Positions 481 through 24,346 are shown, counted from the first letter of the stretch. The stretch is DNA of 64,000 nucleotides from an uncultured Bacteroidota bacterium (GCA_902774395.1 CACYIK010000004.1:30932-94931); one strand, 5' to 3'. Notes: a model not told the origin generated them from the letters alone. Translations and numbers: made by a program.

Positions 481-536
481 GTCGGTTATTTATCTCTTTT
501 TATATTGAATCAATAATTATTATATACACACACTTA

Positions 537-3524: not shown

Positions 3525-3621
3525 ACTTTATATATAAATTTATGTTTTTTATTATATTCCTTTGAACATGCAAAAATAATAAAAAATATTGACATAGCAA
3601 ACAAAATCGAAAAAAAACATG

Positions 3622-3629
3622 TATCTTTG
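3622..3629 (+). promoter_or_regulatory. Bacteroidota -7 promoter box (TAnnTTTG) for radC
   Basis: TATCTTTG followed by CA, about 30 nt upstream of ATG 3658, in an AT-rich intergenic region. Confidence 0.5.
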
Positions 3630-3657
3630 CACAAAAATTCTAGAATTACAACAAGAT

Positions 3658-4724: not shown

Positions 4725-4728
4725 GGAA

Positions 4729-5772: not shown

Positions 5773-5781
5773 ATTATTACG

Positions 5782-6468
5782 TTACTTTTTAATCACTTTA
5801 ACACTCAGGATGCGGACATCCTCCAACGGACGGTCCATCGGGTCCGTCTTGACGGCCGCTATCTTGTCGACAACATCCATACCCTCAAGCACTTCGCCAA
5901 AGACGGTGTAGTCGCCGTCGAGGTGCGGGGCACCACCCTCCTCGGCATAGATCTTACGATGCTCGTCGGAGTATTTCTTGCCGAAGCGCTGCTCCATCAT
6001 ATTCATCTCGCCGTCAGACCATTTACGACCCTGGACGATATAGAACTGTGAGGCCGACGACTCCTTCTTGGGGTTCACGTCGTCACCCTGGCGGGCGGCA
6101 CACAGTGCGCCACGCTTATTGATATGGTTCTCACGGAATTCCGCGGGGATTTTATATCCCAAATCACCCTCGCCGAGCATCTGTCCCGCCTTGGCGTTCT
6201 TCGAGTCGGGGTCGCCACCCTGAATCATGAAGCCCTTGATGACCCGATGGAACAGCGTCCCGTCGTAGACACCTTCACCAGCCAATTTTATGAAATTGTC
6301 ACGGTGCAAAGGGGTGTCGTCATACAGCAGAATGACAATATTTCCGCTGCTGGTCTGCATTTCCACCCGCACGCCGGAATCCTTTCCGGACTCCTGTTTT
6401 TCAACCCCTTGCGCGGTCACGAATAAAGCAGGGAATAAAAAAAACGCCAAAAATATTATTTTTTTCAT
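5782..6468 (-). CDS. cyclophilin-type peptidyl-prolyl cis-trans isomerase, secreted
   Basis: FHRVIKGFMIQGGDP cyclophilin signature. The start was moved to the internal MKKIIFLAFFLFPALFVTAQG signal peptide (ATG 6466-6468); the upstream extension reads through an AT-rich promoter. Confidence 0.88.
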   Translation of the reverse strand: MKKIIFLAFFLFPALFVTAQGVEKQESGKDSGVRVEMQTSSGNIVILLYDDTPLHRDNFIKLAGEGVYDGTLFHRVIKGFMIQGGDPDSKNAKAGQMLGEGDLGYKIPAEFRENHINKRGALCAARQGDDVNPKKESSASQFYIVQGRKWSDGEMNMMEQRFGKKYSDEHRKIYAEEGGAPHLDGDYTVFGEVLEGMDVVDKIAAVKTDPMDRPLEDVRILSVKVIKK

Positions 6469-6550
6469 CCTATATAGAATAAATTTGCTAATTTTGCAAT
6501 GCAAAAATAAGAATAAAAATAGAAATAACGACTCAAAAAAACATAGTTTT

Positions 6551-6925
6551 ATGAAGAAAAAAATCCTCTCCTTCTTCGCGCTGCTGGCTTTCAGCATCTT
6601 ACCCATGACACTTTTTACCGCCTGCGACAAAGACACCAATAGTTATTTGGATGTTTATGTGGTCGACGAAGCCACCAACGAGCCGATTTCGGGAGCCGTC
6701 ATCAAGATTTCCCAAAGCAACGGAGGCAACGTCCGCGACAATGGCGTCACCGACAAGAACGGCCACTACAAAACAAAATTCTCCGCTCCCGCCATCATCA
6801 ATATCGAAGCCGCCCTCAACGTCCCCGGAGGAGAGCGCCGCGGCTCCACCACCATCCGCCTGCTCGAAGGCGAGACCATCAACACGAAAATCGCACTCAC
6901 AAGCCAGATCTACGGCCAACGATAA
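6551..6925 (+). CDS. small lipoprotein with a carboxypeptidase-regulatory-like (Ig-like) fold
   Basis: Start at ATG 6551 gives MKKKILSFFALLAFSILPMTLFTAC (lipobox). LDVYVVDEATNEPISGAVIKI...TDKNGHY resembles CarboxypepD_reg domains. Confidence 0.5.
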   Translation: MKKKILSFFALLAFSILPMTLFTACDKDTNSYLDVYVVDEATNEPISGAVIKISQSNGGNVRDNGVTDKNGHYKTKFSAPAIINIEAALNVPGGERRGSTTIRLLEGETINTKIALTSQIYGQR

Positions 6926-6937
6926 ACAACTCATACC

Positions 6938-8464
6938 ATGACCTTTAAACCGACAAAACAAGATCAGGAACAGCTCGTCTCGCTGGGCCTGACCACCGAG
7001 CGTGTACAGGAACAAATCAACCACTTCAAGGAGGGGTTCCCAAAATGCCGCCTCGATGCCGCCTCCACTCCCGAAAACAACGGCATCCGCTGCCTCGACG
7101 ACAAAGAGATAGCCCGCTGCGAGAAACAATACCGCACCCTAGCCAAAGGCAAGAAGATTCTGAAGTTCGTCCCCGCCTCCGGCGCCGCAACACGCATGTT
7201 CAAAGACCTTTACAGCTTCTCCTCGACCTATTTCGGCGTCGCCAAAGACTTCGAGAAGCAGTTCCCCGAAGTGAAGACCTTCCTCGAGAACCTCCGCACC
7301 TTCGCCTTCTACAACGACCTGAAAAACTGCATGGAAGCCGCCGACCTCGACCTCGAGGACTACATGCGCCGCGGCGACTACACCACCGTCATCAACTTCC
7401 TGCTCAAAGAGCAATACCTCGGCTACGGCAGCCTGCCCAAAGCGCTGTTAAAGTTTCACCGTTATGGAGCCGTGCAACGCACTCCGTTAGAGGAACATAT
7501 CGTCGAGGGCGCACTCTACGCCCGCAACAGCGACGACACCGTTAACCTCCACTTCACCATCTCGCCCGAACACCGCGCCGGCTTCCGCCGCAAAATCGCC
7601 GAAGTGAAACAATATTATGAGAGCACCTTCGGCATCAAACTGAATATAAGCTTCTCGGAACAAAAGCATTACACCGATATCATCGCCGTCGACGAGCAGA
7701 ACAATCCCGTGCGCGACGAGAACGGCCGCCTCATCTTCCGCCCCGGCGGACATGGTGCCCTCATCGAGAACCTCAACGAGCAACGCGCCGACCTTATCTT
7801 CATCAAGAACATCGACAATGTTGTCCCCGACTGGATGAAGCATACCACGGTGATTTACAAACAGGTGCTGGCCGGCATGCTCCTCGACCTGCGCGAGAAA
7901 TGCTTCGGCTACCTCCGCACCCTCGACGACAAACCCGACCGCCGCACCCTCAACAAAATTATCCGCTTCGCCAAAGAGGAGCTTAATATCATGGTACCAG
8001 ACGGTTGCGACGCCCAGACGCTCCACAGCCTCCTCAACCGTCCCATGCGCATCTGCGGCATGGTGAAGAACCTCGGTGAGCCGGGTGGAGGCCCCTTCTA
8101 TACCATTGATACCAAGGGCAGAAGAAGCCTCCAGATCGTCGAGTCGGCCCAGATCAACCACAACGACCCGCAGCAGGAGGGCATCTTCCAGGCATCGACC
8201 CACTTCAACCCCGTCGACCTGGTATGCAGCACCAAGAACTACCGCGGCCGTTATTTCGACCTGAGGAAATATGTCGACCCGCAGACCGGATTCATCAGCA
8301 AGAAGACCAAGGGTGCCCTCACCCTGAAGTCGCAGGAGCTCCCCGGCCTCTGGAACGGCGCCATGACCGACTGGATCACCCTCTTCGTCGAGGTCCCCGT
8401 CGCCACCTTCAACCCCGTCAAGACCGTCAACGACCTCCTTCGGAAAGAACACCGCGAAGCCTGA
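6938..8464 (+). CDS. conserved hypothetical protein, DUF4301-like
   Basis: 508-aa cytoplasmic ORF with good coding character. The N-terminus (QEQLVSLGLTTERVQEQINHFKEGFP) matches my recollection of DUF4301 proteins of Bacteroidota. Not verified by search. Confidence 0.45.
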   Translation: MTFKPTKQDQEQLVSLGLTTERVQEQINHFKEGFPKCRLDAASTPENNGIRCLDDKEIARCEKQYRTLAKGKKILKFVPASGAATRMFKDLYSFSSTYFGVAKDFEKQFPEVKTFLENLRTFAFYNDLKNCMEAADLDLEDYMRRGDYTTVINFLLKEQYLGYGSLPKALLKFHRYGAVQRTPLEEHIVEGALYARNSDDTVNLHFTISPEHRAGFRRKIAEVKQYYESTFGIKLNISFSEQKHYTDIIAVDEQNNPVRDENGRLIFRPGGHGALIENLNEQRADLIFIKNIDNVVPDWMKHTTVIYKQVLAGMLLDLREKCFGYLRTLDDKPDRRTLNKIIRFAKEELNIMVPDGCDAQTLHSLLNRPMRICGMVKNLGEPGGGPFYTIDTKGRRSLQIVESAQINHNDPQQEGIFQASTHFNPVDLVCSTKNYRGRYFDLRKYVDPQTGFISKKTKGALTLKSQELPGLWNGAMTDWITLFVEVPVATFNPVKTVNDLLRKEHREA

Positions 8465-8640
8465 GCGGCAAGGCAGTTTACTTACTTGTCCGAAGCAAAG
8501 CGATGAGGACGAAAGTCAGCATCTAGAAGGTTAAATTCTGCATCTAGAAGGTTAAATAAAGTTAGAAAAAAAGCTGACCAAAGCCCAAAAAACGGCCGAC
8601 AAAGCCAAAATTGGAAATCAATAAGATACAAGCGCAAAAT

Positions 8641-8675
8641 GGCACATAACTGACTAGTTATGTGCCATTTATCGT
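8641..8675 (+). terminator. intrinsic terminator candidate after the DUF4301-like gene
   Basis: Perfect 10-bp stem GGCACATAAC/GTTATGTGCC (8641-8666) with a 6-nt loop, followed by a T-rich tract (ATTTATCGTTTT). Confidence 0.55.
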
Positions 8676-8693
8676 TTTAATGAACTTATAACA

Positions 8694-8800
8694 CACTGAT
8701 ACTCAATACCAACACCGTACCAACGACGTATCAACACCGTATCAACTCCGACCCAACACCGACCACAGTCGGAGATGATACGTTTTTGCCACGGTACTGA
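8694..8800. repeat. stutter-word hairpin element, copy 1 of a dispersed ~85-bp repeat (second copy 38656-38790)
   Basis: CACTGATACTCAATACCAACACCGTACCAACGACGTATCAACACCGTATCAACTCCGACCC... aligns at roughly 80% identity, same orientation, with 38656 onward. The right arm GTCGGAGATGATACG pairs with CGTATCAACTCCGAC. Confidence 0.8.
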
Positions 8801-8868
8801 CACGTCATTCACACCAATCTCTTCTTTCTCTTTTCGCGCACATTTCATTGAACGTTAATTGCCGTTAA

Positions 8869-9467
8869 TTATCCATCAATTGTCTGGGATTCAGCGTCGA
8901 CAACGACCAGTTTGCCCTGCATTCGTGGTATTTCCGCAATGCGCTGGTCAGAGCCAACTACAAGAATGTGGCAAAAGGCATCAGTCAAGACGGTCACTTT
9001 CTTGAACTCTTCTTCCAGAATCTCCTGATGGGTGAGAATAACGAGCTAAAGAACAGATACATGCTGGTGAACCCACCTGAAGAGTGGAAACAACCCACAA
9101 GCACCGATCAAGAACAGGACAAGCACCGTACAAGTACCGTACAAGTACCGAACAAGCTCGAGGATTTATTACACACAAATAATCCTGACATTGTAAGGCT
9201 CGTGATGGCTATTGGATGTCGGCAATTATCTGTGACACAAATGATGGAATCCATTGGATTGAAACATCGACCCACTTTTTGCAGAACTATCTCAATCCTG
9301 CCATTACCGATGGAAATATCTGTTTGTTATATCCAGACAAACCTCGCCATCCCCGCCAGAGATACCTGCTGACCGTGAAGGGGCAGATGCTGTATCGGGA
9401 ACTTACAAAACAATATCGCCCGACACCGGCAGCGGATTCTTCGCTAGATAAAGTCGGTTCTCGTTGA
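8869..9467 (+). pseudogene. 5'-truncated, frameshifted fic-family gene remnant with a C-terminal wHTH module
   Basis: The frame opens at 8869 without a start or the Fic core. It reads ...HSWYFRNALVRANYKNVAKGI...LSVTQMMESIGLKHRPTF, then shifts frame at a T5 run (9276-9280) to QNYLNPAITDGNICLLYPDKPRHPRQRYLLT. The tail is homologous to the C-terminus of the 15441-16883 protein (MTEIMDHIGMKHRYNVKHRYIDPLIESGFLEMTIPDKPNSRSQKY). Confidence 0.55.
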
Positions 9468-9500
9468 ATTCAAGATGCAAGTCGCTAACTAACTGGATTT

Positions 9501-10352
9501 TCATAATCTAAATATTTGCATCATGCGGATTAACGCTCGACGGAAGAGTGCGTAATTCCTGCTGTCTGACACATCAAGCAGGTCGTTCAGCAGGAGGCTT
9601 TCGTCTTCCTTATCCACCTCCTGTTGCAACATTTCGGCATAGTATTGGCGATTATGGGGAGAAAGCATTGCCCGCAGGTCGGAGGCAATCCACTCTGCAC
9701 CGGCCACGGTGACGTCGAATGTTGTCGCCTCGACATCGACCTCTTGCGGAAGGCCGTCGCGCGTGAGGGCGTATGCCACATAAACATTCTGCAGAATATA
9801 AACCATATCGGACGCATCCTTGAGGGTGCTGAGGTGGCGGTCACTCCATGTGTCCAGTTTCAGTAGGAACTGGCCGCTGAGCGATGCCATCCGGAACGAG
9901 AATTCCTCATCCACAGTCACCTTGTCGGCATGTTCCATCACCTCCGAAAAGCAACGCACCGACATCACAGGCGACCCCTCAGGAGGCCAAGCAATCATCC
10001 CGTTGTGCTCCACCTCCCCAAACGGCACAATGTCCACCTCATAGTGGTTTTGCCCTTGCGGTCCCACATAGTAGAACCGTTGGCGTTCGGAAGCTTTAAC
10101 GAAATAGTTCTGCAACAGCAACTGTGAGAGGTGCTCATACTGACTCCAATCGTCCAACGCCACAGCCACATCGAGGTCGAGCGTACGTCGGGGATTATTG
10201 CCGACATTCAGCAATCTCATGGCGATATCGCGTGCGGCAGCCCCCACCACATAAACCTCCTCTCCGAGCGCCGCATAGCACTCCGACAGCGCCTGCAGCG
10301 TCTCCACCAGCAACTCGTTCTTCAACGTTTCTTTCTTTATCGAATACTCCAT
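9501..10352 (-). CDS. nucleotidyltransferase-domain protein, candidate toxin partner of the upstream AbiEi-like gene
   Basis: 283 aa. Pol-beta-type NTase motif VVGAAARDIAMRLLNVGNNPRRTLDLDVAV (G-x-A/S...DxD). Starts 3 nt after the stop of the 10356-10940 gene. Confidence 0.55.
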   Translation of the reverse strand: MEYSIKKETLKNELLVETLQALSECYAALGEEVYVVGAAARDIAMRLLNVGNNPRRTLDLDVAVALDDWSQYEHLSQLLLQNYFVKASERQRFYYVGPQGQNHYEVDIVPFGEVEHNGMIAWPPEGSPVMSVRCFSEVMEHADKVTVDEEFSFRMASLSGQFLLKLDTWSDRHLSTLKDASDMVYILQNVYVAYALTRDGLPQEVDVEATTFDVTVAGAEWIASDLRAMLSPHNRQYYAEMLQQEVDKEDESLLLNDLLDVSDSRNYALFRRALIRMMQIFRL

Positions 10353-10355
10353 ATC

Positions 10356-10940
10356 TCAATAACCAATAACCTTTATAATTCTCTCTGCGGCTTCGCGGCA
10401 GCGGTCGTTGCCCATCGCCAGCAAGTCGGCATACACCACCACAGGCGGGGTGCCCGCCTCGTCCCAGAACTTGCGGTAGACGTATATCTCGCCGTCGGCC
10501 TTCGGAATCATCCGACCAGTGGCTATCAGCGCATTGGCGTTGTCGGAAACGTAGACATCCCAACGTTCTGGCTGTAGGTAGTCATCCAATAAAGCAGCTG
10601 CAGGCTCCCCTCCCCAACTGACATTCTCCGGCATGCGTATGTCACGCCAGCACTCCTTTACCTGAGGTGTAAGAAACGTGAATCGAGCAACAAAGAAACG
10701 CTCTTTGAGCCCGTCGGCATAGGCTCGTGTCCATCGGTCGAGCAGAGATGTCCGTTTCCTCAGCAGGCGTTTTTTGCCGTCCTCCACGACGTAACCCTTC
10801 TCCATCAGGCTCTGCATGACATTATTTACCGACCCAACAGAGACACCTGCCGCCGCAGCCAGCTGCCGGTATCTTAAATTAGTGTTTGACTTATCTTGCA
10901 ACAACCTGAAAACAACCTGAAATTCTGCTTTATGCATCAT
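10356..10940 (-). CDS. AbiEi-like winged-helix transcriptional regulator / type IV antitoxin candidate
   Basis: 194 aa. N-terminal wHTH (LRYRQLAAAAGVSVGSVNNVMQSLMEKGYV). The C-terminal part (LLDRWTRAY...WGGEPAAALL...VVVYADLLAMGNDRCREAAERI) matches my recollection of AbiEi antitoxin C-domains. Confidence 0.55.
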   Translation of the reverse strand: MMHKAEFQVVFRLLQDKSNTNLRYRQLAAAAGVSVGSVNNVMQSLMEKGYVVEDGKKRLLRKRTSLLDRWTRAYADGLKERFFVARFTFLTPQVKECWRDIRMPENVSWGGEPAAALLDDYLQPERWDVYVSDNANALIATGRMIPKADGEIYVYRKFWDEAGTPPVVVYADLLAMGNDRCREAAERIIKVIGY

Positions 10941-10967
10941 AATTCTTAATGTTTATCCCACCTATTT

Positions 10968-11021
10968 TGTTCATTTAATACATTGTGTTCAAAATAATTG
11001 AACAAAAACAATTATTGAACA
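10968..11021. promoter_or_regulatory. nested palindromic operator candidate upstream of the AbiEi-like gene
   Basis: Four hexamer half-sites: TGTTCA (10968-10973), TGTTCA (10986-10991), TGAACA (10999-11004), TGAACA (11016-11021). The inner pair forms GTTCAAAATAATTGAAC. The site lies 28-80 nt upstream of the ATG at 10940 (minus strand). Confidence 0.4.
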
Positions 11022-11260
11022 ATATCGATGCAAAGATACACATTTTCTTTAATATAGCAAAAAAAATATCGTCATATAAAGAAAGTGTCGTGTTTTTTTA
11101 ATTTTGTTTATCACATTTTTATCTGTTTTCGTAAATCTTTCTACCCATAAAGTATGGAGATTGCGGAATTGTTACATGCTTGCCGCATGTTTTTTTTGCC
11201 TCCTCCGACGGGGCTCCAAAATTAAATTTGGCGGTTCCAGATAATCTTTGTATCTTTGCA

Positions 11261-11268
11261 GTTTGAAA
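11261..11268 (+). promoter_or_regulatory. Bacteroidota -7 promoter box (TAnnTTTG) for the type I R-M operon
   Basis: TATCTTTGCA about 30 nt upstream of the hsdR ATG at 11298. Confidence 0.5.
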
Positions 11269-11297
11269 ATGAATAATCGAATTCAAATATTACGCTG

Positions 11298-14003
11298 ATG
11301 ACACCGGAAGAGAAGGCTAGAGTTAAGATAGACCAGATGTTTGAGGACGCTGGCTGGAAGGTGGTGGATAGGGATTTCTATTCGCCAACCCTTACAGCTG
11401 CAGCTATTCGAGAAGGCCTTATGAACGGTAATCGAGAAGCCGACTACTTCCTGTTTATCAACGGTATGGCCGTAGGTGTGTTGGAAGCGAAACGTAAAGA
11501 GGTGGATGTAACCACGACTATTGTATGCGAACAGGCAGAACTATATGCCCGTGGTGTCCCCAATTGTTATAAGGCTTACTCTCGACCTCTCCCTATCATC
11601 TATCAGTCAAACGGCGAAGAAACATACTTCCGTGATTTCCGCGATAAAGAAGGCGAACTAGTAGAAACCGATCGCATCTATACTCCGAAAGAGATTGTCA
11701 AAATGCTGGGTATAGACGACCCCTACGCCGGTTTGCCTGATTTAAAAAGAAAAGGGCTGCGCGATTGTCAGTATGAGGCTATCCGCGAATTGGAAAGCAG
11801 TTTCCGCGCAGGTCAAAAAAAAGCCTTGATAGTGTTGGCTACAGGGGCGGGCAAGACTTACACCGCCTGTATGGCCGCCTATCGCTTTCTGGCTTTCACT
11901 CCGGTGAAACGTATCCTTTTCCTGGTCGACCGAAACAATCTTGGCAAACAGGCAGAAGGAGAGTTTGGAATGTTCCGCCTGACTGAAAATGGCGACCCGT
12001 TCAACACCATCTTTACGGTGGATCGCCTGAGGTCTGCCAAAGTGCCGTCGGACAGCAATGTGGTCATCTCCACCATACAACGCCTGTTCTCTCTTCTCAC
12101 AGGTAAGGAGATAGTAGATAATGATGACGACGATGAAGACACCGCCACAGAAGAAGTACAGTTGCCGGGAAACATCACGATTCCACCAGATTTCTTCGAC
12201 CTGATTATAATCGACGAATGCCATCGTTCCATCTATGGCAATTGGAAGAAAGTGTTGGATTACTTCCAAACAGCCAAAATGATAGGGCTGACGGCGACCC
12301 CTGTCCCCGAAACAAAGGCCTTTTTCAACAATAACATTGTTGTCAATTACACGCTTGAACAATCCATCGTGGACGGCGTGAATGTAGATGCCCGCGTTTA
12401 TCGTATCAAGACAGAGGCCACAGAGAATGGTGGCGCTATCTTGATAGGCGACAAACTGAGACGGATGACACGATATACAGGCAAGGTGGAAACCATCCGC
12501 AACGAAGAGTCGAAGAACTACACAAAAGAGGAACTGAACCGCAGCATTATCAATCCGGCACAAATCAAGCTCGTGCTGGAAACATATCGCGATACTGTCT
12601 ATACTGAGATGTTCACCGACCCTCAGCGTGAGCCGAATATGGATTATCTGCCCAAGACACTCATTTTCGCGCTGAACGAAATCCATGCCAACAATATCGT
12701 GACGATTGCAAAGGAAGTGTTTGGACGGACAGACGACAAGTTTGTGCAAAAGATTACATACTCCTCGGGCGACAGCAACGAGTTAATCCGTCAGTTTCGC
12801 AACGACAAGGAATTCCGCATAGCAGTCACCTGCACATTGGTGGCAACGGGCACGGATGTGAAACCGCTCGAAGTGCTGATATTCATGCGCGATGTGGCAT
12901 CCGAGCCGCTTTGTATCCAGATGAAAGGTCGCGGCGTGCGCACCATAGGCGACGACCAGCTGCGCAACGTCACCCCCAATGCCTTCAGCAAGGATTGTTT
13001 CTTCCTCGTAGATGCCGTAGGCGTAACCGAGAGCCAAAAGACTGTCACAAGTCCAGGCAATGGTGAAACCGAGCAAAATATCACGCTGAAACGGTTGCTG
13101 GAGCTGCTGACTCACGGCAACGTGAACGATGACTATCTGCGCTTGATTGCCGCCAAACTCGCGCGTATCTACAACAAGTGTACCGACAAACAGCGAGAGG
13201 AGTTTGAAAGAATGGCCCACAGCGGTATGCAGGAAATCTCGGCTGCCATCTTCGACGCTTTGGAGAAAAACACGTTGCCTCCATACGAAAGCATCGATGA
13301 GCCGAATTTTGAACGTAAAGCGTTGGTGGCTCCGCTGACCCATCATCCCGAGGCGCGTCAGTTTCTGCTTATCCTTGCGGCCGGTTTTGTGGAAACACTT
13401 ATGCCTGGCGAAGACCAGCTGATATCAAAAGGATTCTCGCAAGAGGAGGCAAAAGAGCTCACTTCGGCATTTGAGAAATACTGCGAGGAACATCAAGACG
13501 AGATTGAGGCACTTCGAATGATTTACAACAACGAGGGGGAGCCTCTGACCTACTATATCCTGAAAGACTTGGAGAACAAGCTGAAGATGGCCAACAATCG
13601 CTTCCAGTCGTCCCGCATCTGGAACTCGTATGCCATTGTAAGTCCTCAAGCTGTGAAGAAGCATACCACCAAGGAGGAGAAAGAGGCGCTCACCAATATC
13701 ATTCAGCTGGTGCGTTTCGCCAACCATCAGATAGAGAAACTGGAGAGCCTTTACCCATTGGCTCAGCAGCGTTTCAACCTCTGGTATGGTCAGATGCAGC
13801 GCACAGTGACCGAGTCTCAGATAGCCATCATCCGGCAGATAGTGGATTATATCGCTTCCAACGGAGCCTGCACCATCAAGGATATTATCGAGGACGACAG
13901 AAACCGTGCGGCCCAGCTCATCAATGCCTTCGGAGGGAAGGAGCAGGCCGACGAAGCCCTCGTGTCGCTCTCCAAATTCTTACTTTACAGAAAAACAGCA
14001 TAA
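11298..14003 (+). CDS. hsdR: type I restriction endonuclease subunit R
   Basis: 901 aa. N-terminal nuclease-like region (READYFLFINGMAVGVLEAKR). SF2 helicase motifs (LATGAGKT, IIIDECHRS, GLTATP, ATGTDV, QMKGRGVR). Confidence 0.93.
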   Translation: MTPEEKARVKIDQMFEDAGWKVVDRDFYSPTLTAAAIREGLMNGNREADYFLFINGMAVGVLEAKRKEVDVTTTIVCEQAELYARGVPNCYKAYSRPLPIIYQSNGEETYFRDFRDKEGELVETDRIYTPKEIVKMLGIDDPYAGLPDLKRKGLRDCQYEAIRELESSFRAGQKKALIVLATGAGKTYTACMAAYRFLAFTPVKRILFLVDRNNLGKQAEGEFGMFRLTENGDPFNTIFTVDRLRSAKVPSDSNVVISTIQRLFSLLTGKEIVDNDDDDEDTATEEVQLPGNITIPPDFFDLIIIDECHRSIYGNWKKVLDYFQTAKMIGLTATPVPETKAFFNNNIVVNYTLEQSIVDGVNVDARVYRIKTEATENGGAILIGDKLRRMTRYTGKVETIRNEESKNYTKEELNRSIINPAQIKLVLETYRDTVYTEMFTDPQREPNMDYLPKTLIFALNEIHANNIVTIAKEVFGRTDDKFVQKITYSSGDSNELIRQFRNDKEFRIAVTCTLVATGTDVKPLEVLIFMRDVASEPLCIQMKGRGVRTIGDDQLRNVTPNAFSKDCFFLVDAVGVTESQKTVTSPGNGETEQNITLKRLLELLTHGNVNDDYLRLIAAKLARIYNKCTDKQREEFERMAHSGMQEISAAIFDALEKNTLPPYESIDEPNFERKALVAPLTHHPEARQFLLILAAGFVETLMPGEDQLISKGFSQEEAKELTSAFEKYCEEHQDEIEALRMIYNNEGEPLTYYILKDLENKLKMANNRFQSSRIWNSYAIVSPQAVKKHTTKEEKEALTNIIQLVRFANHQIEKLESLYPLAQQRFNLWYGQMQRTVTESQIAIIRQIVDYIASNGACTIKDIIEDDRNRAAQLINAFGGKEQADEALVSLSKFLLYRKTA

Positions 14004-15434
<1,431 letters not shown>

Positions 15435-15440
15435 ACCAAT

Positions 15441-16883
15441 ATGATAACAAAAGAGGAACTGCGGGAATTACTGCACAGCACGGAAACATATAGAGTGGAA
15501 CGCACCACCTCGACAGGTGATATGGATAAGTTTCAGGAAGCCATCTGTGCGTTCTCGAATGATTTGCCCAATTCACGCAAGAATGGTTATCTTATTATAG
15601 GAGCATACGATAATGGGAAGTTGTCTGGCTTGAAAGTGACTGACGACCTGCTGAAGAAGATTGCCTCCATCCGTTCCGATGGCAATATTCTTCCGTTACC
15701 GATGATGTCTGTCGAACGCTTTGAATTTCCGGAAGGAGATCTTCTTGTGGCCGAGGTATTGCCATCGCTTCTTCCCCCCGTTCGTTACCGTGGACGGACA
15801 TTTATTCGCATAGGCCCTCGTCGAGATATTGCAACGGAAGCTGAGGAGAGAATACTATTAGAGCGTAGGACTTCATATATGGCCACCTTCGATGCAATGC
15901 CCTGTTTGGGAGCATCGATAAAAGACATTGACACCGAATATATAAAGAACGACTATCTCCCTCAAGTTGTTGATCCAGACTTGCTGGCCACCGACAAACG
16001 GGATTTGAAGGAACAACTGTCCGCCATCCATCTGTATGATCTCGAACACGACTGTCCCACAAATGCTGCCATCATCCTTTTTGGCAAGAATCCGCAATAC
16101 TATATGCACGGATGTTATGTCCAATATGTACATTTTGCAGGAATAAACAATGGTGGCGAAATATTGAACGAGAAGCAGATAAAAGGGTGCCTGTGTAGAA
16201 TGTTGCCTCAATTGGAGAGTTTTGTCCGTGACGCCGTCGTGACATCCCGTCCGGTACCCATTGGTATGTTGCGCGAGCAAACCGTCTTCAATTATCCAGA
16301 GTTGGCATTAAGAGAGTTGCTGATGAACGCCTGTATGCACAGGGATTACCAGTCGAATATGCCAATCCGTCTCTACCAGTATGACGACCGCATAGAAATA
16401 CTCAATGCTGGAGGACTCTATGGCGAGGCGAGGCCCGAGAACTTCCCGACGGTAAACGACTATCGTAATCCCATCATTGCCGAAGCTATGCGAGGGCTCA
16501 AATATGTCAATATGTTCAACCGTGGTATTGAGCGTGTTAAAACCATGTTCCAAGAAAACGGGAATCCGGAACCCTCATTCAAAGTCGATAAGATTACTGC
16601 TTTCGAGGTCGTGGCCAAACCGACTTTATCACTCAACTTAGTCACTGATAAAGAAAAAGTGACTAAGTCAGTGACCAAGATGACGGAAAAGGTGAATGAT
16701 ATTATTGCTTTCTGTTCCGTTCCTCGGAGTATGACCGAGATAATGGATCATATAGGCATGAAACACCGTTATAATGTGAAGCATAGATACATCGACCCTT
16801 TGATTGAAAGTGGTTTCTTGGAGATGACCATACCCGACAAACCAAATAGCAGAAGTCAAAAGTACAAGAGGGCATTAACTTAG
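15441..16883 (+). CDS. AlbA_2 (Schlafen-like) + HATPase_c_4 ATP-binding protein with a C-terminal wHTH module ('RecG-like' putative regulator)
   Basis: 480 aa. N-terminal AlbA_2-like region (ETYRVERTTS...EAICAFSNDLPNSRKNGYLIIGAYDNGKLSGL). Central region ELALRELLMNACMHRDYQSN...IEILNAGGLYG. C-terminal wHTH shared with the fic remnant. Embedded between hsdM and hsdS, 6 nt after hsdM. Confidence 0.75.
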   Translation: MITKEELRELLHSTETYRVERTTSTGDMDKFQEAICAFSNDLPNSRKNGYLIIGAYDNGKLSGLKVTDDLLKKIASIRSDGNILPLPMMSVERFEFPEGDLLVAEVLPSLLPPVRYRGRTFIRIGPRRDIATEAEERILLERRTSYMATFDAMPCLGASIKDIDTEYIKNDYLPQVVDPDLLATDKRDLKEQLSAIHLYDLEHDCPTNAAIILFGKNPQYYMHGCYVQYVHFAGINNGGEILNEKQIKGCLCRMLPQLESFVRDAVVTSRPVPIGMLREQTVFNYPELALRELLMNACMHRDYQSNMPIRLYQYDDRIEILNAGGLYGEARPENFPTVNDYRNPIIAEAMRGLKYVNMFNRGIERVKTMFQENGNPEPSFKVDKITAFEVVAKPTLSLNLVTDKEKVTKSVTKMTEKVNDIIAFCSVPRSMTEIMDHIGMKHRYNVKHRYIDPLIESGFLEMTIPDKPNSRSQKYKRALT

Positions 16884-16930
16884 TCACTTAACTTAGTCAC
16901 TAATCAAAAAAAGTGACCAAGTTAAAATGG

Positions 16931-18343
16931 ATGTTTATGGACACAAAGAAACTACGCCAGAAGATACTCGACCTCGCCATTCGTGGCAAACTCGTCCCCC
17001 AAGACCCCAACGACGAGCCTGCCTCTGTATTGCTGGAGCGCATCCTTGCTGAGAAAGAACGCCTCATCAAGGAAGGAAAGATAAAACGAAGCAAGAAGAC
17101 GGCTACAAATGATGATATTGAAGCGCCCTTTGAGATTCCTGAAAGTTGGGAGTGGACAAACATCGAAGCTGTTGCTGAATCCAATATAGGATTGACATAT
17201 AAACCATCTGATATTACATTAAATGGAATACCAGTTTATCGCTCAAACAACATTCAGAATAAAGAGATAGTTTTAACAGACATTGTAAGAGTAAAAACTG
17301 ATATTCAAACAAAACAATATCTCAATGAGGGTGATTTGCTAATATGTGCTAGAAATGGAAGTCGAAATCTTGTAGGTAAATGTGCTCTTATAAAGCACCT
17401 CACTGAGCCAACTTCTTTTGGGGCTTTTATGGCAGTTTGTCGAAGTGAGTTCAACGAATGGATTTTTCTATTGCTTAATTCAGAATACTTTAATACATAT
17501 TTGGACGAATCAAATTCAACTGCTATAAATCAGGTGACTCAGAAAATGCTCCTTGCATTTCAATTACCATTTCCACCTAAAAAAGAACAAAAGCGTATTT
17601 ATAATGAGGTTACTAAATGGTTTTCTGTGATTGACGAATTGGAGAGCAACGAGGGTGATTTGTTGAAGGCTATAGATAAAGCAAAGTCCAAAATCCTCGA
17701 CCTCGCCATTCACGGTAAACTTGTACCCCAAGACCCCAACGACGAACCCGCCATTGAACTCTTAAAGCGCATCAACCCAAAGTTTGAACCTTGTGATAAT
17801 GAACTCGACGACACCCATCTTCCAGATAATTGGTGCTGGACAACACTAGGCAATATCTTTAACCATAATACAGGGAAGGCATTAAATAAGTCTGATTCGC
17901 AGGAAGGATCATTGCTGCCATATATTACGACGTCTAATGTATATTGGAATCGGTTTGATTTATCTGAGATAAAGAAGATGTTCTTTAAAGACTCAGAAAT
18001 TGACAAATGTACAATAACAAAAGGCGACTTGTTGGTTTGTGAGGGTGGCGATATAGGACGTTCTGCAATATGGAACTATGATTACGATATTTGTATTCAA
18101 AACCACATCCATAGGCTACGTGCAAAAGGCGATGTCAGCCATCTCCTGTATTTATACGTCCTTATGTTTTACAAATGGACAGACAGAATACGGGGGAATG
18201 GCATTGGTCTTCAAGGATTGTCATCTAGGCTATTAGACAAAATCATCGTACCATTACCTCCATATCAGGAGCAACTCCGCATCGTATCAAAGATAGAAGA
18301 ACTCTTTGCCGCCCTTAACAGTATCAAAGAATCCCTAGAATAA
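16931..18343 (+). CDS. hsdS: type I R-M specificity subunit S
   Basis: Two AT-rich target-recognition domains separated by duplicated conserved helices KILDLAI(R/H)GKLVPQDPNDEPA (DNA 16961-17023 and 17690-17751). The ORF track starts at GTG 16913; the first ATGs are 16931 and 16937. Confidence 0.9.
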   Translation: MFMDTKKLRQKILDLAIRGKLVPQDPNDEPASVLLERILAEKERLIKEGKIKRSKKTATNDDIEAPFEIPESWEWTNIEAVAESNIGLTYKPSDITLNGIPVYRSNNIQNKEIVLTDIVRVKTDIQTKQYLNEGDLLICARNGSRNLVGKCALIKHLTEPTSFGAFMAVCRSEFNEWIFLLLNSEYFNTYLDESNSTAINQVTQKMLLAFQLPFPPKKEQKRIYNEVTKWFSVIDELESNEGDLLKAIDKAKSKILDLAIHGKLVPQDPNDEPAIELLKRINPKFEPCDNELDDTHLPDNWCWTTLGNIFNHNTGKALNKSDSQEGSLLPYITTSNVYWNRFDLSEIKKMFFKDSEIDKCTITKGDLLVCEGGDIGRSAIWNYDYDICIQNHIHRLRAKGDVSHLLYLYVLMFYKWTDRIRGNGIGLQGLSSRLLDKIIVPLPPYQEQLRIVSKIEELFAALNSIKESLE

Positions 18344-18347
18344 ACTC

Positions 18348-19445
18348 ATGAATAGGCTTGTACTCATAGGCAACGGCTTCGACTTGGCGCACGGCTTGAA
18401 AACAAGCTATGCGGATTTCATCAACTGGTATTGGGCGCAGTGGGGATACTTATTGAGAGGAAAAGCAAAAAGATTTGAAGAAGATGAGCTCTGTTCGTTT
18501 TCGCTGAATGAGATAGGACTGGGTGGCTGGTATCTTGTTTGGAGTCATTATTATCAAAAACAAAACCCCTTCGATTGGGATTTGAATGAGGTGGCGAAAT
18601 TAGCAAGAGAGGATCGAAAACTATGTGAATTCAAATACAAAAGCCCTTTCTTCGAGCATATCAACAAAAGCTTTGAAAACAAACGATGGGTTGATATCGA
18701 AAACGAATACTATGACTTACTGGTAAAGGCAAAAACATTTGGCAACCAATATCAATCTCTTAACAAACAATTGGAGTCTGTCCGTAACAAACTAATAACA
18801 TTTCTATGTGAGGTGAGCAAAGAACAACCTCCTATGATAGAGGAAATAAAAGAAAAAATATATCGTCCAATAGAAAGGAGAGAACTGCAAACATCTCACC
18901 CATATGTCAGAAATGAAGAATTAGTCATCAGGAACACGTTGTTGCTCAACTTCAACTATACCAACACTCCGGAAATGTATTTGGCAGATAATTCGACGGT
19001 CAACTACATACACGGGAAATTAGATGACCCTCAAAGCGTAATCTTCGGCTATGGGGATGAATTGGACGAGAATTATAAAAGGCTCAAGGAGCAAAATGAT
19101 AGCGAGTGTATGCGTCATGTGAAGTCCATCCGATACTTGGAGCACGACAACTACCGTCGCATGCTCGAGTTCATCGAGTCGGCCCCTTTCCAAGCCGTCA
19201 TTATGGGGCACTCCTGTGGCAATAGCGACAGAACATTGCTTAACACCATCTTTGAACACCGCAACTGCTTATCAATAAAGCCATATTATTACCAGAAAGA
19301 CGATAAGACAGACAACTATTCCGAATTGACAATAAACATCAACCGAAATTTCAGCGACCCAAAACTGATGCGCGACCGCGTGGTATGCAAAGATTACTGC
19401 GAACCACTAACTGGGGTGAAACCAGGAGTAATAGTAATGGGGTAG
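18348..19445 (+). CDS. AbiH-like abortive-infection family protein
   Basis: 365 aa. The N-terminus LVLIGNGFDLAHGLKTSYADFINWYW matches the hallmark N-terminal motif of the AbiH family (Pfam AbiH) as I recall it. Starts 4 nt after the hsdS stop. AT-rich like the hsdS TRDs. Confidence 0.65.
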   Translation: MNRLVLIGNGFDLAHGLKTSYADFINWYWAQWGYLLRGKAKRFEEDELCSFSLNEIGLGGWYLVWSHYYQKQNPFDWDLNEVAKLAREDRKLCEFKYKSPFFEHINKSFENKRWVDIENEYYDLLVKAKTFGNQYQSLNKQLESVRNKLITFLCEVSKEQPPMIEEIKEKIYRPIERRELQTSHPYVRNEELVIRNTLLLNFNYTNTPEMYLADNSTVNYIHGKLDDPQSVIFGYGDELDENYKRLKEQNDSECMRHVKSIRYLEHDNYRRMLEFIESAPFQAVIMGHSCGNSDRTLLNTIFEHRNCLSIKPYYYQKDDKTDNYSELTININRNFSDPKLMRDRVVCKDYCEPLTGVKPGVIVMG

Positions 19446-19479
19446 AAAATAGATGGACAAGAAAAGAAAGCGAAATGGG

Positions 19480-19925
19480 GTGTATGTGATAATGAAAGTG
19501 AAATGCGTTTATTTGCAAATGTGTGAATCTTGAACAATCGATTGCTTAAACTGAGGTCGGCGACAATGTGGAGCCAATATTTGAATGCGTTAATGTGTAA
19601 ATGCGTAAATGTGTGAGTAAACATAAAAATTACATATTTGGCTTCTATAGAGATAATTGTAAGAGAGGGATCTAATAAAAAAGGGTATTGGATTATAGCT
19701 GATTTACAATAAATGTTACAATAAATGTTACAATAAATGCTACAATAAATAATACATATCATCTATGAGACTTATCGATACTTGAATGCGATATAAACCT
19801 AAACATTTATATAAGTTAATGCGTGAACGTTATAACGAATGTGTAAATGCGATAATGTGTGAATGAGTAAATCTTGAATAATCGATTGCTTGAGCTGAGG
19901 TCGGCGACAATGTGGAGTCAATGAG
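19480..19925. repeat. non-coding repeat region: duplicated ~55-bp core with stutter-word arms, plus a 12-bp x4 tandem array
   Basis: Core AATCTTGAACAATCGATTGCTTAAACTGAGGTCGGCGACAATGTGGAGCCAAT (19526-19578) recurs as AATCTTGAATAATCGATTGCTTGAGCTGAGGTCGGCGACAATGTGGAGTCAAT (19870-19922). Both copies are preceded by AATGCGT/AATGTGT word runs. TACAATAAATGT x4 lies at 19705-19755. Confidence 0.8.
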
Positions 19926-20101
19926 ACAAAGGACAACAGGAGTCCCTGGTTGGTGGTCAAGAAGTATTAGCAGCCGCGGAAACACGCACTAACCTACAGC
20001 AATGCCAAGTCATGATATAGGCATCGAGGAAGAGGGACCTCTGCCGATGGCGGCAGAAAGCACCACAGATTATTGAATCAGAGATAAAGTTTTTTTCATA
20101 G

Positions 20102-20338
20102 GACCCTATTTTAACATTGCTGAGGATGATGAAGTCGGGCATCGTGGTGCGCAGTACTCATTATGAGGTAGAAGACCCCTTCTTCCGTCAATGGATTTGC
20201 CAGAATATCACGCAATATTTCTGGAATAGCAAAAAAAAGAAGAGGGGGGTAAATTCATGGTGTGTGCGTTGGTGGACGGGGTTTCCTCTGACCGAATCGG
20301 CGATTTCATATTTTATTTTTGGCGTTTTCCGGAAATAA
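20102..20338 (+). pseudogene. possible C-terminal remnant of an AAA/DUF234-type ATPase gene
   Basis: A frame without a proper start reads ...LTLLRMMKSGIVVRSTHYEVEDPFFRQWI..., resembling the tail (Y-x-I/V-x-DPFF-x-xW) of archaeal-type ATPase/DUF234 proteins common in Bacteroidales. The rest is low complexity. Confidence 0.3.
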
Positions 20339-20415
20339 TTATATATTTGCGAATAACAAACGTTTCGGATAATTCCGATAACGAACATATTATTAATTAA
20401 TTAAAAGAAATCGCT

Positions 20416-21567
20416 ATGAAAAAATTCTTACACACTTTTGCCCTTGTGGCTATGATGCTTCCGTTGGCAAGCGGCTCTCTTTGGGCCCAGGAAGATGTTA
20501 CCATCGGTTCTTTGGCTGGGGCTACGGATGACGCCTACCTCCCTGTAAACACGCTGTACAACTACTCCTACTCCCAGCAGATCTACACTGCTGATGAGAT
20601 TGGTATGGTTGGCACCATCGACTCAATAACCCTTTGGATGTTAGGAACCCAGGATTTATACAATGTTCCTATCACCATTTATATGGTTGAGGTGGACAAG
20701 GAGACCTTCGAAAGCAACACCGACTGGGTGACGGTGAGCGAGGGCGATATCGTGTATACCGACACGCTGACGGTTTTCCACGGTAACTATCCCGAAGCCT
20801 ACACCATCGTGCTTGACACTCCGTTTGTATACTCCGGCACCGGCAACCTGCTGATTGCCGTCAACAACACCACCGGCATTTGGAAGAGCGGTCTGAGAGC
20901 TATGGTATTCGGCAATAGCTCGGGGGCTGCAAAAGCCATCTATGCCCGCCGGGACGGCGTCGGCGTCTACGACCCCTACAACCCCACCTTCGAAGCTAAC
21001 GAAACCACAGGCAAACGCAATGTTATCACCCTTAGCTTCACCCCTGCCCCCTGCGACCCTGTGACCGACGTCACCGTGAGCAACATAACCGGCACCAGCG
21101 CCACTGTGGCTTGGACTGCCCCCGAGGGTCAGACCACCTGGGAGATTGAGTATGGCACGCCCGGCCATACTGCCGGCGCCGGCACCATTGTCACCGCTGA
21201 TAGCAACCCCTACGACCTCACTGACCTCGAGCCGAGCACCGAGTACGGCGTGTATGTCCGCGCTGTCTGCGCGCGTAATCTCTACAGCGACTGGAGTGCC
21301 GAGGCTTCCATCAACACGCTCGGCATCCACGACGCCATGGGCAGCACCGTCAGTGTCTCCCCGAACCCCGCCAGCAGCAATGTCACCATCAGTGGCATTG
21401 AGGACGAGGCCTCCGTTATGGTTGTCGACATGAACGGCCGCACGGTCTTCACCGCCAATGCCAACGAGAGCCTCACCATCGACCTCGCGGGCTTTGCCCA
21501 GGGCGCCTACTTCATCCGCATCTGCGGTGAGCAGACCATGGCCATCCGAAAGCTCCTCGTAAAGTAG
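20416..21567 (+). CDS. secreted T9SS cargo protein: N-domain + fibronectin type III + type A C-terminal sorting domain
   Basis: Signal peptide MKKFLHTFALVAMMLPLASGSLWAQ. FN3-like VSNITGTSATVAWTAPEG...TEYGVYVRAVC. CTD VSPNPASSNVTISG...GAYFIRI...RKLLVK. Confidence 0.8.
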   Translation: MKKFLHTFALVAMMLPLASGSLWAQEDVTIGSLAGATDDAYLPVNTLYNYSYSQQIYTADEIGMVGTIDSITLWMLGTQDLYNVPITIYMVEVDKETFESNTDWVTVSEGDIVYTDTLTVFHGNYPEAYTIVLDTPFVYSGTGNLLIAVNNTTGIWKSGLRAMVFGNSSGAAKAIYARRDGVGVYDPYNPTFEANETTGKRNVITLSFTPAPCDPVTDVTVSNITGTSATVAWTAPEGQTTWEIEYGTPGHTAGAGTIVTADSNPYDLTDLEPSTEYGVYVRAVCARNLYSDWSAEASINTLGIHDAMGSTVSVSPNPASSNVTISGIEDEASVMVVDMNGRTVFTANANESLTIDLAGFAQGAYFIRICGEQTMAIRKLLVK

Positions 21568-21586
21568 TTCTATCTCCGATATTAAG

Positions 21587-21622
21587 CGAGGTCCCTTGCA
21601 ATGCATGGGATCTCGTTTTTTT
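21587..21622 (+). terminator. intrinsic terminator
   Basis: Stem CGAGGTCCC / GGGATCTCG (21587-21595 / 21607-21615) followed by T7 (21616-21622), 20 nt after the stop at 21567. Confidence 0.65.
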
Positions 21623-21730
21623 GTTATGCAAAGCGAGAGGAGAAAGAATTTGCTTTATACATCAAGCAAAAAAAGGTGCCGACACAATAAAATGGGAAGT
21701 GATTCGTTTTTAGGGGAAAACTTTTATAAC

Positions 21731-22330
21731 ATGAAGAAATCAACTATCGTCATCATCAGCATTGTGGCCTTCGTGGCCATCCTCTTCATCTGGGGTATCA
21801 GCGTCAACAACAGCCTCGTGAAACACGACGAGAAGGTGCAGCAGGCATGGAGCCAGGTGGAGAACGTCTACAAACGCCGCATGGACCTTATCCCGCAGCT
21901 CGTCAACACCGTCCAGGGTGCCGCCAACTATGAGAAGGGCGTGCTCACCGAGGTCATCGAGGCCCGCTCGGGTGTGGAGAAAGTCAAGATCGACCCCGAG
22001 AACCTCTCCGAAGAGCAGGTCAAGTCGTTCCAGCAGGCTCAGGACCGCCTCAGCAAGGCCGTGGCCAACAGCATCAAGGTCACCGTCGAGCGCTATCCCG
22101 AGCTGACCGCCACGCAGGGATTCCTCAACCTGCAGCAGCAGCTGGAGAGCACCGAGAACCGCATCACCACGGAGCGCGGCAAGTTCAACAAGGAGGTGCA
22201 GGAATACAATACCAAGCTGCGCCGCTTCCCCAACAGCATCATCGCCGGCATCTGCGGCTTCGAGAAGAAGGGCTACTTCACCGCCCCCGAAGAGGCTGCC
22301 GAACCCGTCAACGTCGAATTCAACTTCTAA
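21731..22330 (+). CDS. lemA: LemA family protein
   Basis: Start at ATG 21731 gives an N-terminal TM helix (STIVIISIVAFVAILFIWG), then a typical LemA sequence (NSLVKHDEKVQQAWSQVENVYKRRMDLIPQLVNTV...RRFPNSIIAG). Confidence 0.88.
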   Translation: MKKSTIVIISIVAFVAILFIWGISVNNSLVKHDEKVQQAWSQVENVYKRRMDLIPQLVNTVQGAANYEKGVLTEVIEARSGVEKVKIDPENLSEEQVKSFQQAQDRLSKAVANSIKVTVERYPELTATQGFLNLQQQLESTENRITTERGKFNKEVQEYNTKLRRFPNSIIAGICGFEKKGYFTAPEEAAEPVNVEFNF

Positions 22331-23797: not shown

Positions 23798-24346
23798 ATG
23801 AAGCAAACCACTTTGTGCTATATCGACAACGGCGACAGCTATCTGATGCTGCACCGCGTGAAGAAAGAGAACGACGCCAGCCACGGCAAGTGGATAGGCG
23901 TGGGCGGCAAGTGCGAGGCCGACGAGAGCCCCGACGAGTGCATGCTGCGCGAGGTGAAGGAAGAGACGGGTCTGGACATCACCAAATGGCACTACCGCGG
24001 CATCGTCACCTTCATCTCCGACACCTGGCCCAACGAATACATGCACCTCTTCACCGCCACGGCCTGGCGCGGCGAGCCCGACATGAGCATCGACGACGAG
24101 GGCACCCTGGCGTGGATACCCAAATCAGTGATTAGTGATCAGTGTTCAGTGCTCAGTGACGTCCTGCAGGACAGCGGCAGCCAACTTAACACTAAACACT
24201 TACCACTAAACAATCTTCCCATGTGGGAGGGCGACAAGATATTCCTCCGCCTCCTTCTTGACGAGTCCACCCCCTTCTTCTCCCTCAAGCTCGTCTATGA
24301 GCAGGACGAAATGGTAAAAGCGACACTTAATGGAACGGCACTTTGA
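23798..24346 (+). CDS. Nudix hydrolase (MutT-like)
   Basis: Nudix box GKWIGVGGKCEADESPDECMLREVKEETGL. Carries an in-frame word-array insertion at 24126-24211. Confidence 0.85.
   Translation: MKQTTLCYIDNGDSYLMLHRVKKENDASHGKWIGVGGKCEADESPDECMLREVKEETGLDITKWHYRGIVTFISDTWPNEYMHLFTATAWRGEPDMSIDDEGTLAWIPKSVISDQCSVLSDVLQDSGSQLNTKHLPLNNLPMWEGDKIFLRLLLDESTPFFSLKLVYEQDEMVKATLNGTAL

Follow-up and report, generated by a model that had tools for sequence, protein, structure and literature searches.

A probable defence hotspot free of mobility genes between DUF4301 and type IX secretion cargo genes in an uncultured rumen Bacteroidales species

Chromosomal defence hotspots free of mobility genes are well documented in Proteobacteria, and restriction operons may themselves carry an additional gene, such as prrC, which sits between hsdM and hsdS in type I operons of Escherichia coli. 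Among the closest described systems, the immigration control region (ICR) of E. coli and relatives (Sibley & Raleigh 2004, as described in PMC12707154) has conserved anchor genes and a highly variable, cassette-like content, dominated by several type I hsdRMS families together with the type IV enzymes Mrr and GmrSD, and was defined through an 'empty site' strain. For cDHS1 and cDHS2, core defence hotspots (cDHS) of Pseudomonas aeruginosa (Johnson et al. 2023, PMC10250203), transfer has been proposed to occur via homologous recombination in the conserved flanks, leaving no mobile-element scars. A locus resembling these systems is described here, in a 64,000-nt window (the whole stretch of DNA analysed, C4:30932-94931 in accession GCA_902774395.1) from the 2.35-Mb genome, assembled in 26 contigs, of an uncultured bacterium.

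The segment under study runs from 8465 to ~20333, i.e. from a DUF4301 gene to the promoter of a cargo gene of the type IX secretion system (T9SS). It is very probably (at a probability of about 0.85) the variable content of a chromosomal defence hotspot devoid of mobility genes and located between the housekeeping genes DUF4301 and LemA, in which cassettes are replaced by recombination and older occupants are eroded by deletion. The window derives from a single genome bin, the related records being bins of uncultured rumen Bacteroidales (cattle rumen uncultured genome, RUG, bins and goat omasum), and the alleles used for comparison are metagenome-assembled contigs.

Conserved anchors and alternative contents

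The frame of the locus is made up of the following features, all positions being those of the window.

6938..8464, plus strand: DUF4301 gene, conserved left anchor (Pfam PF14134, E 1.5e-206)
8630..8677, plus strand: terminator-like hairpin directly 3' of DUF4301 (inverted repeat and terminator scan match)
8690..8800, plus strand: stutter-word hairpin with an 11-nt word period, member of a dispersed repeat family
20318..21567, plus strand: T9SS cargo gene (Pfam fn3 and Por_Secre_tail), with its own -33/-7 promoter at 20318-20349
21731..22330, plus strand: LemA gene, right core anchor at the genus level (empty-site alignment)

An ortholog of the DUF4301 gene was found in 23 of the 24 species sampled from the genus. 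In the four closest species (G011, G005, G009 and G002) the site is empty, DUF4301 being followed, after 95-465 bp, by the LemA-TPM-NUDIX genes. Three other species carry different fillings: a 7.6 kb segment in G017 that encodes a Type ISP restriction enzyme together with a YafQ toxin, a 5.5 kb GrpE-like/Hsp70-like/TPR cluster in G012 and a HipA-like toxin in G047. Species further removed have either an inverted LemA-TPM block or other core genes next to DUF4301, which makes the DUF4301-LemA site a rearrangement breakpoint as well. The G012 cluster (L067:1980-6727) is composed of genes for GrpE-like, Hsp70-like (491 aa), 341-aa and TPR proteins, had no significant PADLOC match, and may represent an undescribed defence system.

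Conspecific contigs were collected by exact-protein look-ups, starting with LemA, whose exact 199-aa product was found on 22 contigs, and continuing with allele-specific genes. Their flanks are 94-99.6% identical to the window at the nucleotide level over 10 kb and all of them keep the T9SS-LemA arrangement; the interval from DUF4301 to the T9SS gene holds at least six different cargos, in a set of about ten alleles. Allele A carries an HTH_3 gene, an intact Fic gene, metallophosphoesterase, nucleotidyltransferase (NTase) and AbiEi genes, a type I system other than that of the window, in which hsdM and hsdS are separated by a YhcG nuclease gene, and genes for Mrr and a C69 peptidase. Allele B is devoid of AbiE genes and encodes RhuM, a Dam-type methylase, DUF7226, a DndB/DpdB-like protein, a helicase, a methylase, a HAD protein and AlbA_2. 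Further cargos consist of a RhuM-GmrSD-DpnI-methylase set, of an EcoR124-type type I system or of an HTH_11 fragment only, and another (L116:1041-6065) encodes a 1674-aa primase-helicase, in which a DnaG zinc ribbon is joined to DEAD and UvrD-type helicase domains. Taken across alleles, the cargo mostly belongs to known or candidate anti-phage families: three kinds of type I system, Type ISP, Mrr, GmrSD, DpnI, AbiE-like, AbiH, AlbA_2, the PADLOC candidate PDC-S72 (Fic), DpdB-like, YafQ and HipA.

The gene content is not invariant across either the genus or the species, in line with the accessory island proposed in the first-pass annotation, since four empty sites, three fillings in other species and at least six conspecific cargos were found. 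Over 356-12392 and over the AbiH-T9SS-LemA region, the window is matched at 100% identity by independent assemblies, which come from at least eight samples; because the junctions recur identically in so many samples, the island is not an artefact of binning or assembly.

The limits assigned to the island in that annotation, DUF4301 and the T9SS gene, hold within the species, where the sequence is variable up to the T9SS promoter; at the genus level the variable segment extends to ~21680. The T9SS gene, present in 10 of 10 conspecific contigs, is a right anchor within the species. Relatives have no ortholog of it at the DUF4301-LemA site, although species G128 has one elsewhere, so that it was rejected as a core anchor for the genus. 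The sequence common to the window and the G128 ortholog extends to 21625. For LemA, relatives and called products point to an ATG start at 21731, and the TTG start at 21596 of the open reading frame (ORF) is probably wrong.

The stutter-word hairpin had been taken as the left edge of the island, an assignment that did not survive: blastn detected relatives at ~40 loci on 16 contigs of the genome, and the hairpin lies inside the frame common to the alleles, being seen in the frames of both A and B. Given these dispersed copies and the location within the shared frame, it is not an island border. The adjacent terminator-like hairpin falls within frame sequence 96.7% identical to allele A, and was likewise counted as conserved. 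Members of the stutter-word family also occur in sister species, often directly 3' of genes, and G011 and G002 have analogous hairpins in their empty DUF4301-LemA sites.

Further to the right, the NUDIX gene and that of a UvrD-like helicase overlap in the window (junction 24330-24346) and are separated by 4-6 kb in G011, G002 and G005 (L063, L064, L065); this junction may be a second variable site nearby.

A horizontally transferred restriction operon and its left junction

Most of the segment is occupied by a type I restriction-modification operon, preceded by a candidate promoter.

11227..11260, plus strand: candidate resident Bacteroidetes promoter, -33 TTTG at 11227-11230 and -7 TATCTTTG at 11251-11258 (consensus match)
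11298..15434, plus strand: hsdR and hsdM, type I restriction-modification, EcoAI/EcoEI family (Pfam ResIII, EcoEI_R_C, N6_Mtase, HsdM_N; PADLOC REase_I, MTase_I)
11298-14003, plus strand: hsdR (Pfam, PADLOC, NCBIfam)
14010-15434, plus strand: hsdM (Pfam, PADLOC, NCBIfam)
15441..16883, plus strand: gene for an AlbA_2 (Schlafen-like)/HATPase_c_4/Fic-like_C protein, between hsdM and hsdS (Pfam)
16913..18343, plus strand: hsdS specificity subunit (Pfam Methylase_S, PADLOC Specificity_I)
18348..19445, plus strand: gene for an AbiH-family abortive-infection protein, 4 nt after hsdS (PF14253, E 6e-33, 115.4 bits against a cut-off of 30.9; PADLOC AbiH, E 4e-12)

The five genes follow each other on the plus strand at distances of 4-29 nt. 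The components of a type I system, i.e. hsdR (helicase-nuclease), hsdM (N6-adenine methyltransferase) and hsdS, are found together in this one operon by Pfam, PADLOC and NCBIfam, activity being predicted. hsdS contains two Methylase_S stretches and an internal conserved repeat of 84 nt; it is the only hsdS, and neither inverted hsdS repeats, in a repeat search of the window, nor a recombinase were found that would indicate a shufflon. The two recognition domains of hsdS would determine where the enzyme methylates its own DNA, and phage DNA lacking the modification would be cut. Family membership likewise suggests abortive infection for AbiH, predicted to be Sir2-like (PMC13064643), and assigns no role to the AlbA_2 protein. 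The two proteins would act as optional back-up effectors encoded in the same transcript. Sequence searches of the PDB returned nothing for AbiH, and for the AlbA_2 protein weak matches to an uncharacterised protein and a Fic C-terminal domain. Across species, the first ~88 nt and the 3' half of the AbiH gene are conserved and its middle is variable; AbiH genes are followed by AlbA_2-type genes in three of five other rumen loci (L130, L131 and L133; loci examined, L130-L135), even where this hsdS is not adjacent.

A copy of this operon is present in another species of the genus, G123, where it is located on contig C7 between DXS/Fic and C10 peptidase/AlaRS genes, i.e. at another locus. Window positions 11250-17155, including hsdR, hsdM, the AlbA_2 gene and the start of hsdS, are 96% identical to it at the nucleotide level, whereas the DUF4301, LemA, TPM and NUDIX genes of the two species are 70-88% identical. 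Such an identity at a non-homologous locus, compared with that of the core genes, implies a recent horizontal transfer. The first-pass annotation had stated that the route of acquisition is not visible; it now becomes visible in part, through this copy and through the position of the left junction, directly after the -7 box.

The products of hsdR and hsdM are 98% identical to their G123 counterparts, those of hsdS 45%: both target-recognition domains (17156-17629 and 17804-18250) have been replaced, the nucleotide match being lost exactly there. The AlbA_2 protein is 98% identical in G123, diverged (61%) in G075 and absent from G117; AbiH is 66% identical in G123 and 60% in G146, and absent from both G117 and G075, so that the operon copy of G117 contains neither. 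By these sequence comparisons, AlbA_2 and AbiH are demonstrably optional passengers among near-identical operon copies. The AbiE-like module and the Fic gene, found in the left part of the segment, turn up separately in other species; the modules thus circulate independently of one another, and the island is a mosaic of them.

The composition of the region agrees with the description of its ~11.7 kb, between the DUF4301-like and T9SS genes, as AT-richer than its surroundings. The G+C content (GC) of 8465-21595 is 46.7%, compared with 54-57% in the flanks and a genome mean of 54.7%, which places it at the 2nd percentile among 4050 13-kb windows of the genome, as the eighth-lowest 13-kb region. 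The dip is patchy: values are 48.8% for hsdR-hsdM-AlbA_2, 40.3% for hsdS and AbiH, and 37.1% for the non-coding sequence at 19446-20415. Codon usage is atypical for hsdS, AbiH and AlbA_2, which fall between the 91st and 98th percentile of Karlin codon distance and between the 2nd and 5th percentile of GC at third codon positions (GC3), hsdS being at the 2nd; it is unremarkable for hsdR, hsdM and the AbiE-like genes, and the T9SS gene, with 56.9% GC, is native-like. By the two measures that the annotation had proposed, GC and codon usage, the segment can thus be told apart from its flanks.

An ancestral presence of the segment in the genus, followed by its loss in the species with empty sites, would agree with the native composition of the T9SS gene and its fixation in the species, and with the frequency of deletions at this locus. 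Such differential loss is nevertheless extremely improbable: it is contradicted by the 96% identity of the operon at a non-homologous locus, when core genes reach 70-88%, by the atypical codons of hsdS, AbiH and AlbA_2, and by the cargos of the different alleles, which are unrelated systems rather than subsets of one ancestor.

The left junction of the operon coincides with the candidate promoter. A TTTG is found 20 nt upstream of GTATCTTTGCA (11250-11260), whose -7 element corresponds to the Bacteroidetes consensus TAnnTTTG (PMC4747536). In blastn comparisons the window and alleles A, B, L111 and L117 are 80-98% identical up to GTATCTTTGCA and diverge directly after it, with left breakpoints at 11260 and 11270; the box is also present in the operon copies of G123, G146, G117 and G075, each of which becomes homologous to the window at this box or just past it. 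The right junction of allele A is likewise located just before the -7 box of the T9SS gene. The five genes are apparently transcribed from this resident promoter (11227-11258).

These junctions raise the possibility of a fixed expression slot, where the promoter (-33 TTTG and -7 TATCTTTG, 11227-11258) stays in place and cassettes are swapped behind it, the -7 box providing the short homology for crossover and the stack of gene tails on the right recording successive replacements. The idea is offered as a tentative one and is rather unlikely. If true, the TATCTTTGCA box, near-universal in Bacteroidetes, would enable the transfer of a defence operon from one locus or species to an unrelated one with no need of a mobility gene, and the junction at the promoter box suggests a way, open to testing, in which cassettes could be exchanged in the absence of recombinases. 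TATCTTTGCA occurs in 152 copies in the genome, when ~3 are expected.

Gene remnants and the probable route of replacement

Between the conserved hairpins and the promoter, remnants of a Fic gene and of an AbiE-like module are found.

8887..9467, plus strand: 3' remnant of a Fic-family gene, PADLOC candidate PDC-S72 (Pfam Fic-like_C; PDC-S72 positions 237-345 of 377)
9403..9504, minus strand: metallophosphoesterase stub of 33 codons, third gene of an AbiEi-NTase-Metallophos operon (allele A alignment; junction 9415/9416)
9501..10352, minus strand: NTase, AbiEii-like (PF08843, 19.8 bits against a cut-off of 22.5; PDC-M21B, E 3e-4)
10356..10940, minus strand: AbiEi_2-type winged-helix regulator or antitoxin (PF09952, E 2.8e-23)

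Comparison with allele A accounts for both truncated genes. At junction 8883/8887, 1.34 kb are missing from the window, corresponding to the HTH_3 partner gene and the 5' part of Fic, i.e. ~217 N-terminal codons including the Fic motif HPFxEGNTR; at junction 9415/9416 the missing sequence is 0.71 kb (allele A 4998-5709), and the deletion took away the Fic stop codon and left only 29-39 codons of the metallophosphoesterase gene, whose product is an intact 260-aa protein in allele A, and a 39-aa stub in the genome of the window by tblastn. The intact Fic protein of allele A (393 aa) matches PDC-S72 over its full length (E 1e-128), and intact copies of 376-428 aa are found in 56 of the 142 other species of the genus and on conspecific contigs. 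Both the loss of the 5' half of the fic-family gene and its frameshift at a T5 run (9276-9280), noticed in the first-pass annotation, were borne out by the intact copies, the frameshift as a difference in run length from the intact allele. The intact Fic gene located upstream of the operon copy in G123 was considered as an ancestor of the stub, and discarded, the two proteins being unrelated.

The wreckage on the left, read at first as marking a boundary of the island, is real; the boundary was not upheld, because the alignments indicate that deletions have removed parts of an HTH-Fic and AbiEi-NTase-metallophosphoesterase block that was once intact, and that the wreckage does not mark an insertion boundary. 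Similarly, the description of every intact gene as defence-type, including an AbiEi-like/NTase pair, stands as far as the families are concerned, and has to be amended for the pair: the metallophosphoesterase gene is deleted here and the operon is conserved elsewhere, so the pair is a truncated three-gene module. Regarding the two-gene AbiE type (an AbiEi winged helix-turn-helix protein and an AbiEii GTP-specific NTase), AbiEi_2 is recognised at E 2.8e-23, the NTase scores below the PF08843 cut-off, and a third gene was ancestrally present. The NTase had no match in NCBIfam and no sequence match in the PDB. The AbiEi_2-NTase-metallophosphoesterase operon (window 9403-10940) is conserved in four other species, G090, G138, G016 and G122 (L099, L100, L076, L078), and in allele A (L136:5016-7231).

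On the right, between the AbiH gene and the T9SS promoter, repeats alternate with the ends of three genes.

19501..19922, plus strand: two direct copies of a 78-nt repeat, each with a 28-nt core at 19550-19577 and 19894-19921 (repeat search)
19629..19712, plus strand: gene tail 1, final 27 codons plus stop of an AlbA_2/HATPase_c_4/HTH_11 gene (identical at the C-terminus to a 501-aa G047 protein)
19923..19970, plus strand: gene tail 2, last 15 codons and stop of an HTH_11 protein gene (identical to the end of a 125-aa ORF in conspecific L115)
20114..20215, plus strand: gene tail 3, last ~34 codons of a gene for a 352-356-aa P-loop ATPase, stop codon lost (genus search)

The two repeat copies bracket a 12-nt x4 array and tail 1, which is 96-99% identical to G047 at the nucleotide level, with ~1.4 kb deleted. 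Homology between the window and L115 begins at 19920. Tail 3 shows 89% identity to the 35 C-terminal residues encoded by a 352-aa ORF of G124, and has matches in 30 of 142 other species of the genus; it was missed by Pfam and by a search for paralogs in the same genome, and was detected by the genus-wide search. The right breakpoints of the conspecific alleles, at 19920, 20021, 20123, 20241 and 20333, are nested among the tails. Of the right edge as first annotated, ~970 bp of non-coding repeats plus the tail of an ATPase gene, the ATPase tail was retained, and the single tail was replaced by a stack of three.

The 28-nt core ACTGAGGTCGGCGACAATGTGGAGCCAA might be regarded as a boundary site of cassettes, and an integron-like, site-specific exchange might take place between the -7 box on the left and the core on the right, driven by a recombinase encoded elsewhere. 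In its favour, five alleles and four cross-species operon copies have their left junction in common, at the -7 box; homology to G123 stops at 19580, and the limit of homology to G047, G137 and L115, as an end or a start, is at 19914-19922, both positions being at the 3' end of a core copy; moreover, two cores flank an AlbA_2 gene in G047. The proposal is nonetheless very unlikely and the core was largely rejected as a cassette boundary: other copies lie inside ordinary genes or ordinary intergenic DNA, most allele junctions are devoid of it, including the right junctions of alleles A, B, L111, L116 and L117, and no recombinase is linked to the locus. As the -7 box is a general element, in view of its 152 copies, its sharing may only reflect a shared promoter architecture, which also counts against site-specific exchange. 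The core (ACTGAGGTCGGCGACMWTGTGGAGCCAA) was also observed at C22:9020, C14:17836 and C6:43357, the C14 and C6 copies being inside ordinary ORFs; direct short-word arrays are found on both sides of the core in the window, C22 and C14 copies, and a diverged copy is present in the empty site of G009.

The absence of integrase, transposase and tRNA genes, already remarked upon from the sequence of the window, was confirmed and extended to the alleles: Pfam detected no integrase or transposase domain in the scanned ORFs of the window nor in the called genes of any allele, and a tRNA scan of 1-40000 found no tRNA. An Rfam search of 8300-21800 gave one chance match, far below the gathering score, and a repeat search found no direct repeats bracketing the segment. 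These results bear on the possibility that the segment is a decayed integrative element (an integrative and conjugative element, ICE; an integrative and mobilizable element, IME; or a prophage-like element), which has lost its integrase and attachment (att) sites and whose ends are represented by the stubs. Low GC and the several gene remnants are compatible with this origin, as is the 1674-aa primase-helicase fusion of one conspecific allele, a kind of protein also found on mobile elements. On the other hand, at least six alleles and three fillings in other species lack any integrase, relaxase or transposase domain, neither a tRNA nor bracketing direct repeats are present, and the stubs map to internal deletions of genes intact in allele A; the recombinase and att duplication that characterise integrative elements are found neither in the window nor in any allele. 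A decayed element is accordingly considered improbable.

Replacement of cassettes by recombination, followed by deletion, is favoured. Incoming DNA would replace whole defence cassettes, with crossovers that may be homologous, in the conserved flanks, or rely on short homology at the conserved promoter sequence, both of which fit the data. Later illegitimate deletions would erode the old occupants, leaving the Fic and metallophosphoesterase stubs on the left and the three tails on the right; the present cargo is composed of the truncated AbiEi-NTase(-metallophosphoesterase) module and of the five-gene hsdR-hsdM-AlbA_2-hsdS-AbiH operon.

Several points weigh against this interpretation. No recombination event was observed directly, and a gradient of divergence in the flanks towards the hotspot, looked for as a sign of recombination, was not found, so that there is no signal of a recombination tract. 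The ordinary codon usage of hsdR, hsdM and the AbiE-like genes is no proof of foreign origin, and fits donors within the genus. The NTase lies below the Pfam cut-off for AbiEii, the promoter is recognised by its consensus only, and the defence function of every gene is predicted from family membership.

Comparison with known systems

The extra genes of the hsd operon recall operons of the prrC type, in which a defence-type gene inside the hsd operon is co-transcribed and provides a second line of defence; the passengers differ, being AlbA_2/HATPase_c_4 and AbiH proteins rather than an anticodon nuclease, and are optional.

As regards the locus as a whole, cDHS1 and cDHS2 share with it consistent core flanks, variable defence content, lower GC and the lack of an obvious mobile-element group. 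The P. aeruginosa hotspots are larger, with a median of 26 kb compared with ~12-13 kb here, more than 1600 alleles are known for them compared with about ten, and the host here is uncultured.

The likeness to the ICR (PMC12707154) consists of conserved anchor genes, a variable cassette-like content and the recourse to an 'empty site'; in addition, type I hsdRMS families are accompanied in both cases by type IV enzymes, the alleles here holding Mrr, GmrSD and three type I systems. The evidence differs, coming here from metagenome contigs and not from isolates, and so do the phylum and the anchors, yjiA and yjiN in the ICR, DUF4301 and T9SS/LemA in the present locus, whose cargo adds AbiE-like, AbiH, AlbA_2, Fic/PDC-S72 and DndB-like genes. 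A further difference may lie in the left junction, which here coincides with a Bacteroidetes -7 promoter box.

The locus offers a clean and small example, which combines empty sites with at least six alleles and where past deletions can still be read; the AlbA_2 and AbiH genes turn out to be optional in one type I operon and an apparent AbiE pair turns out to be truncated. The anchor genes, DUF4301 and T9SS/LemA, provide a handle for mining rumen metagenomes for new defence systems. By analogy with the ICR and the cDHS, it is best viewed as a good representative of an established type of locus, and not as a new type.

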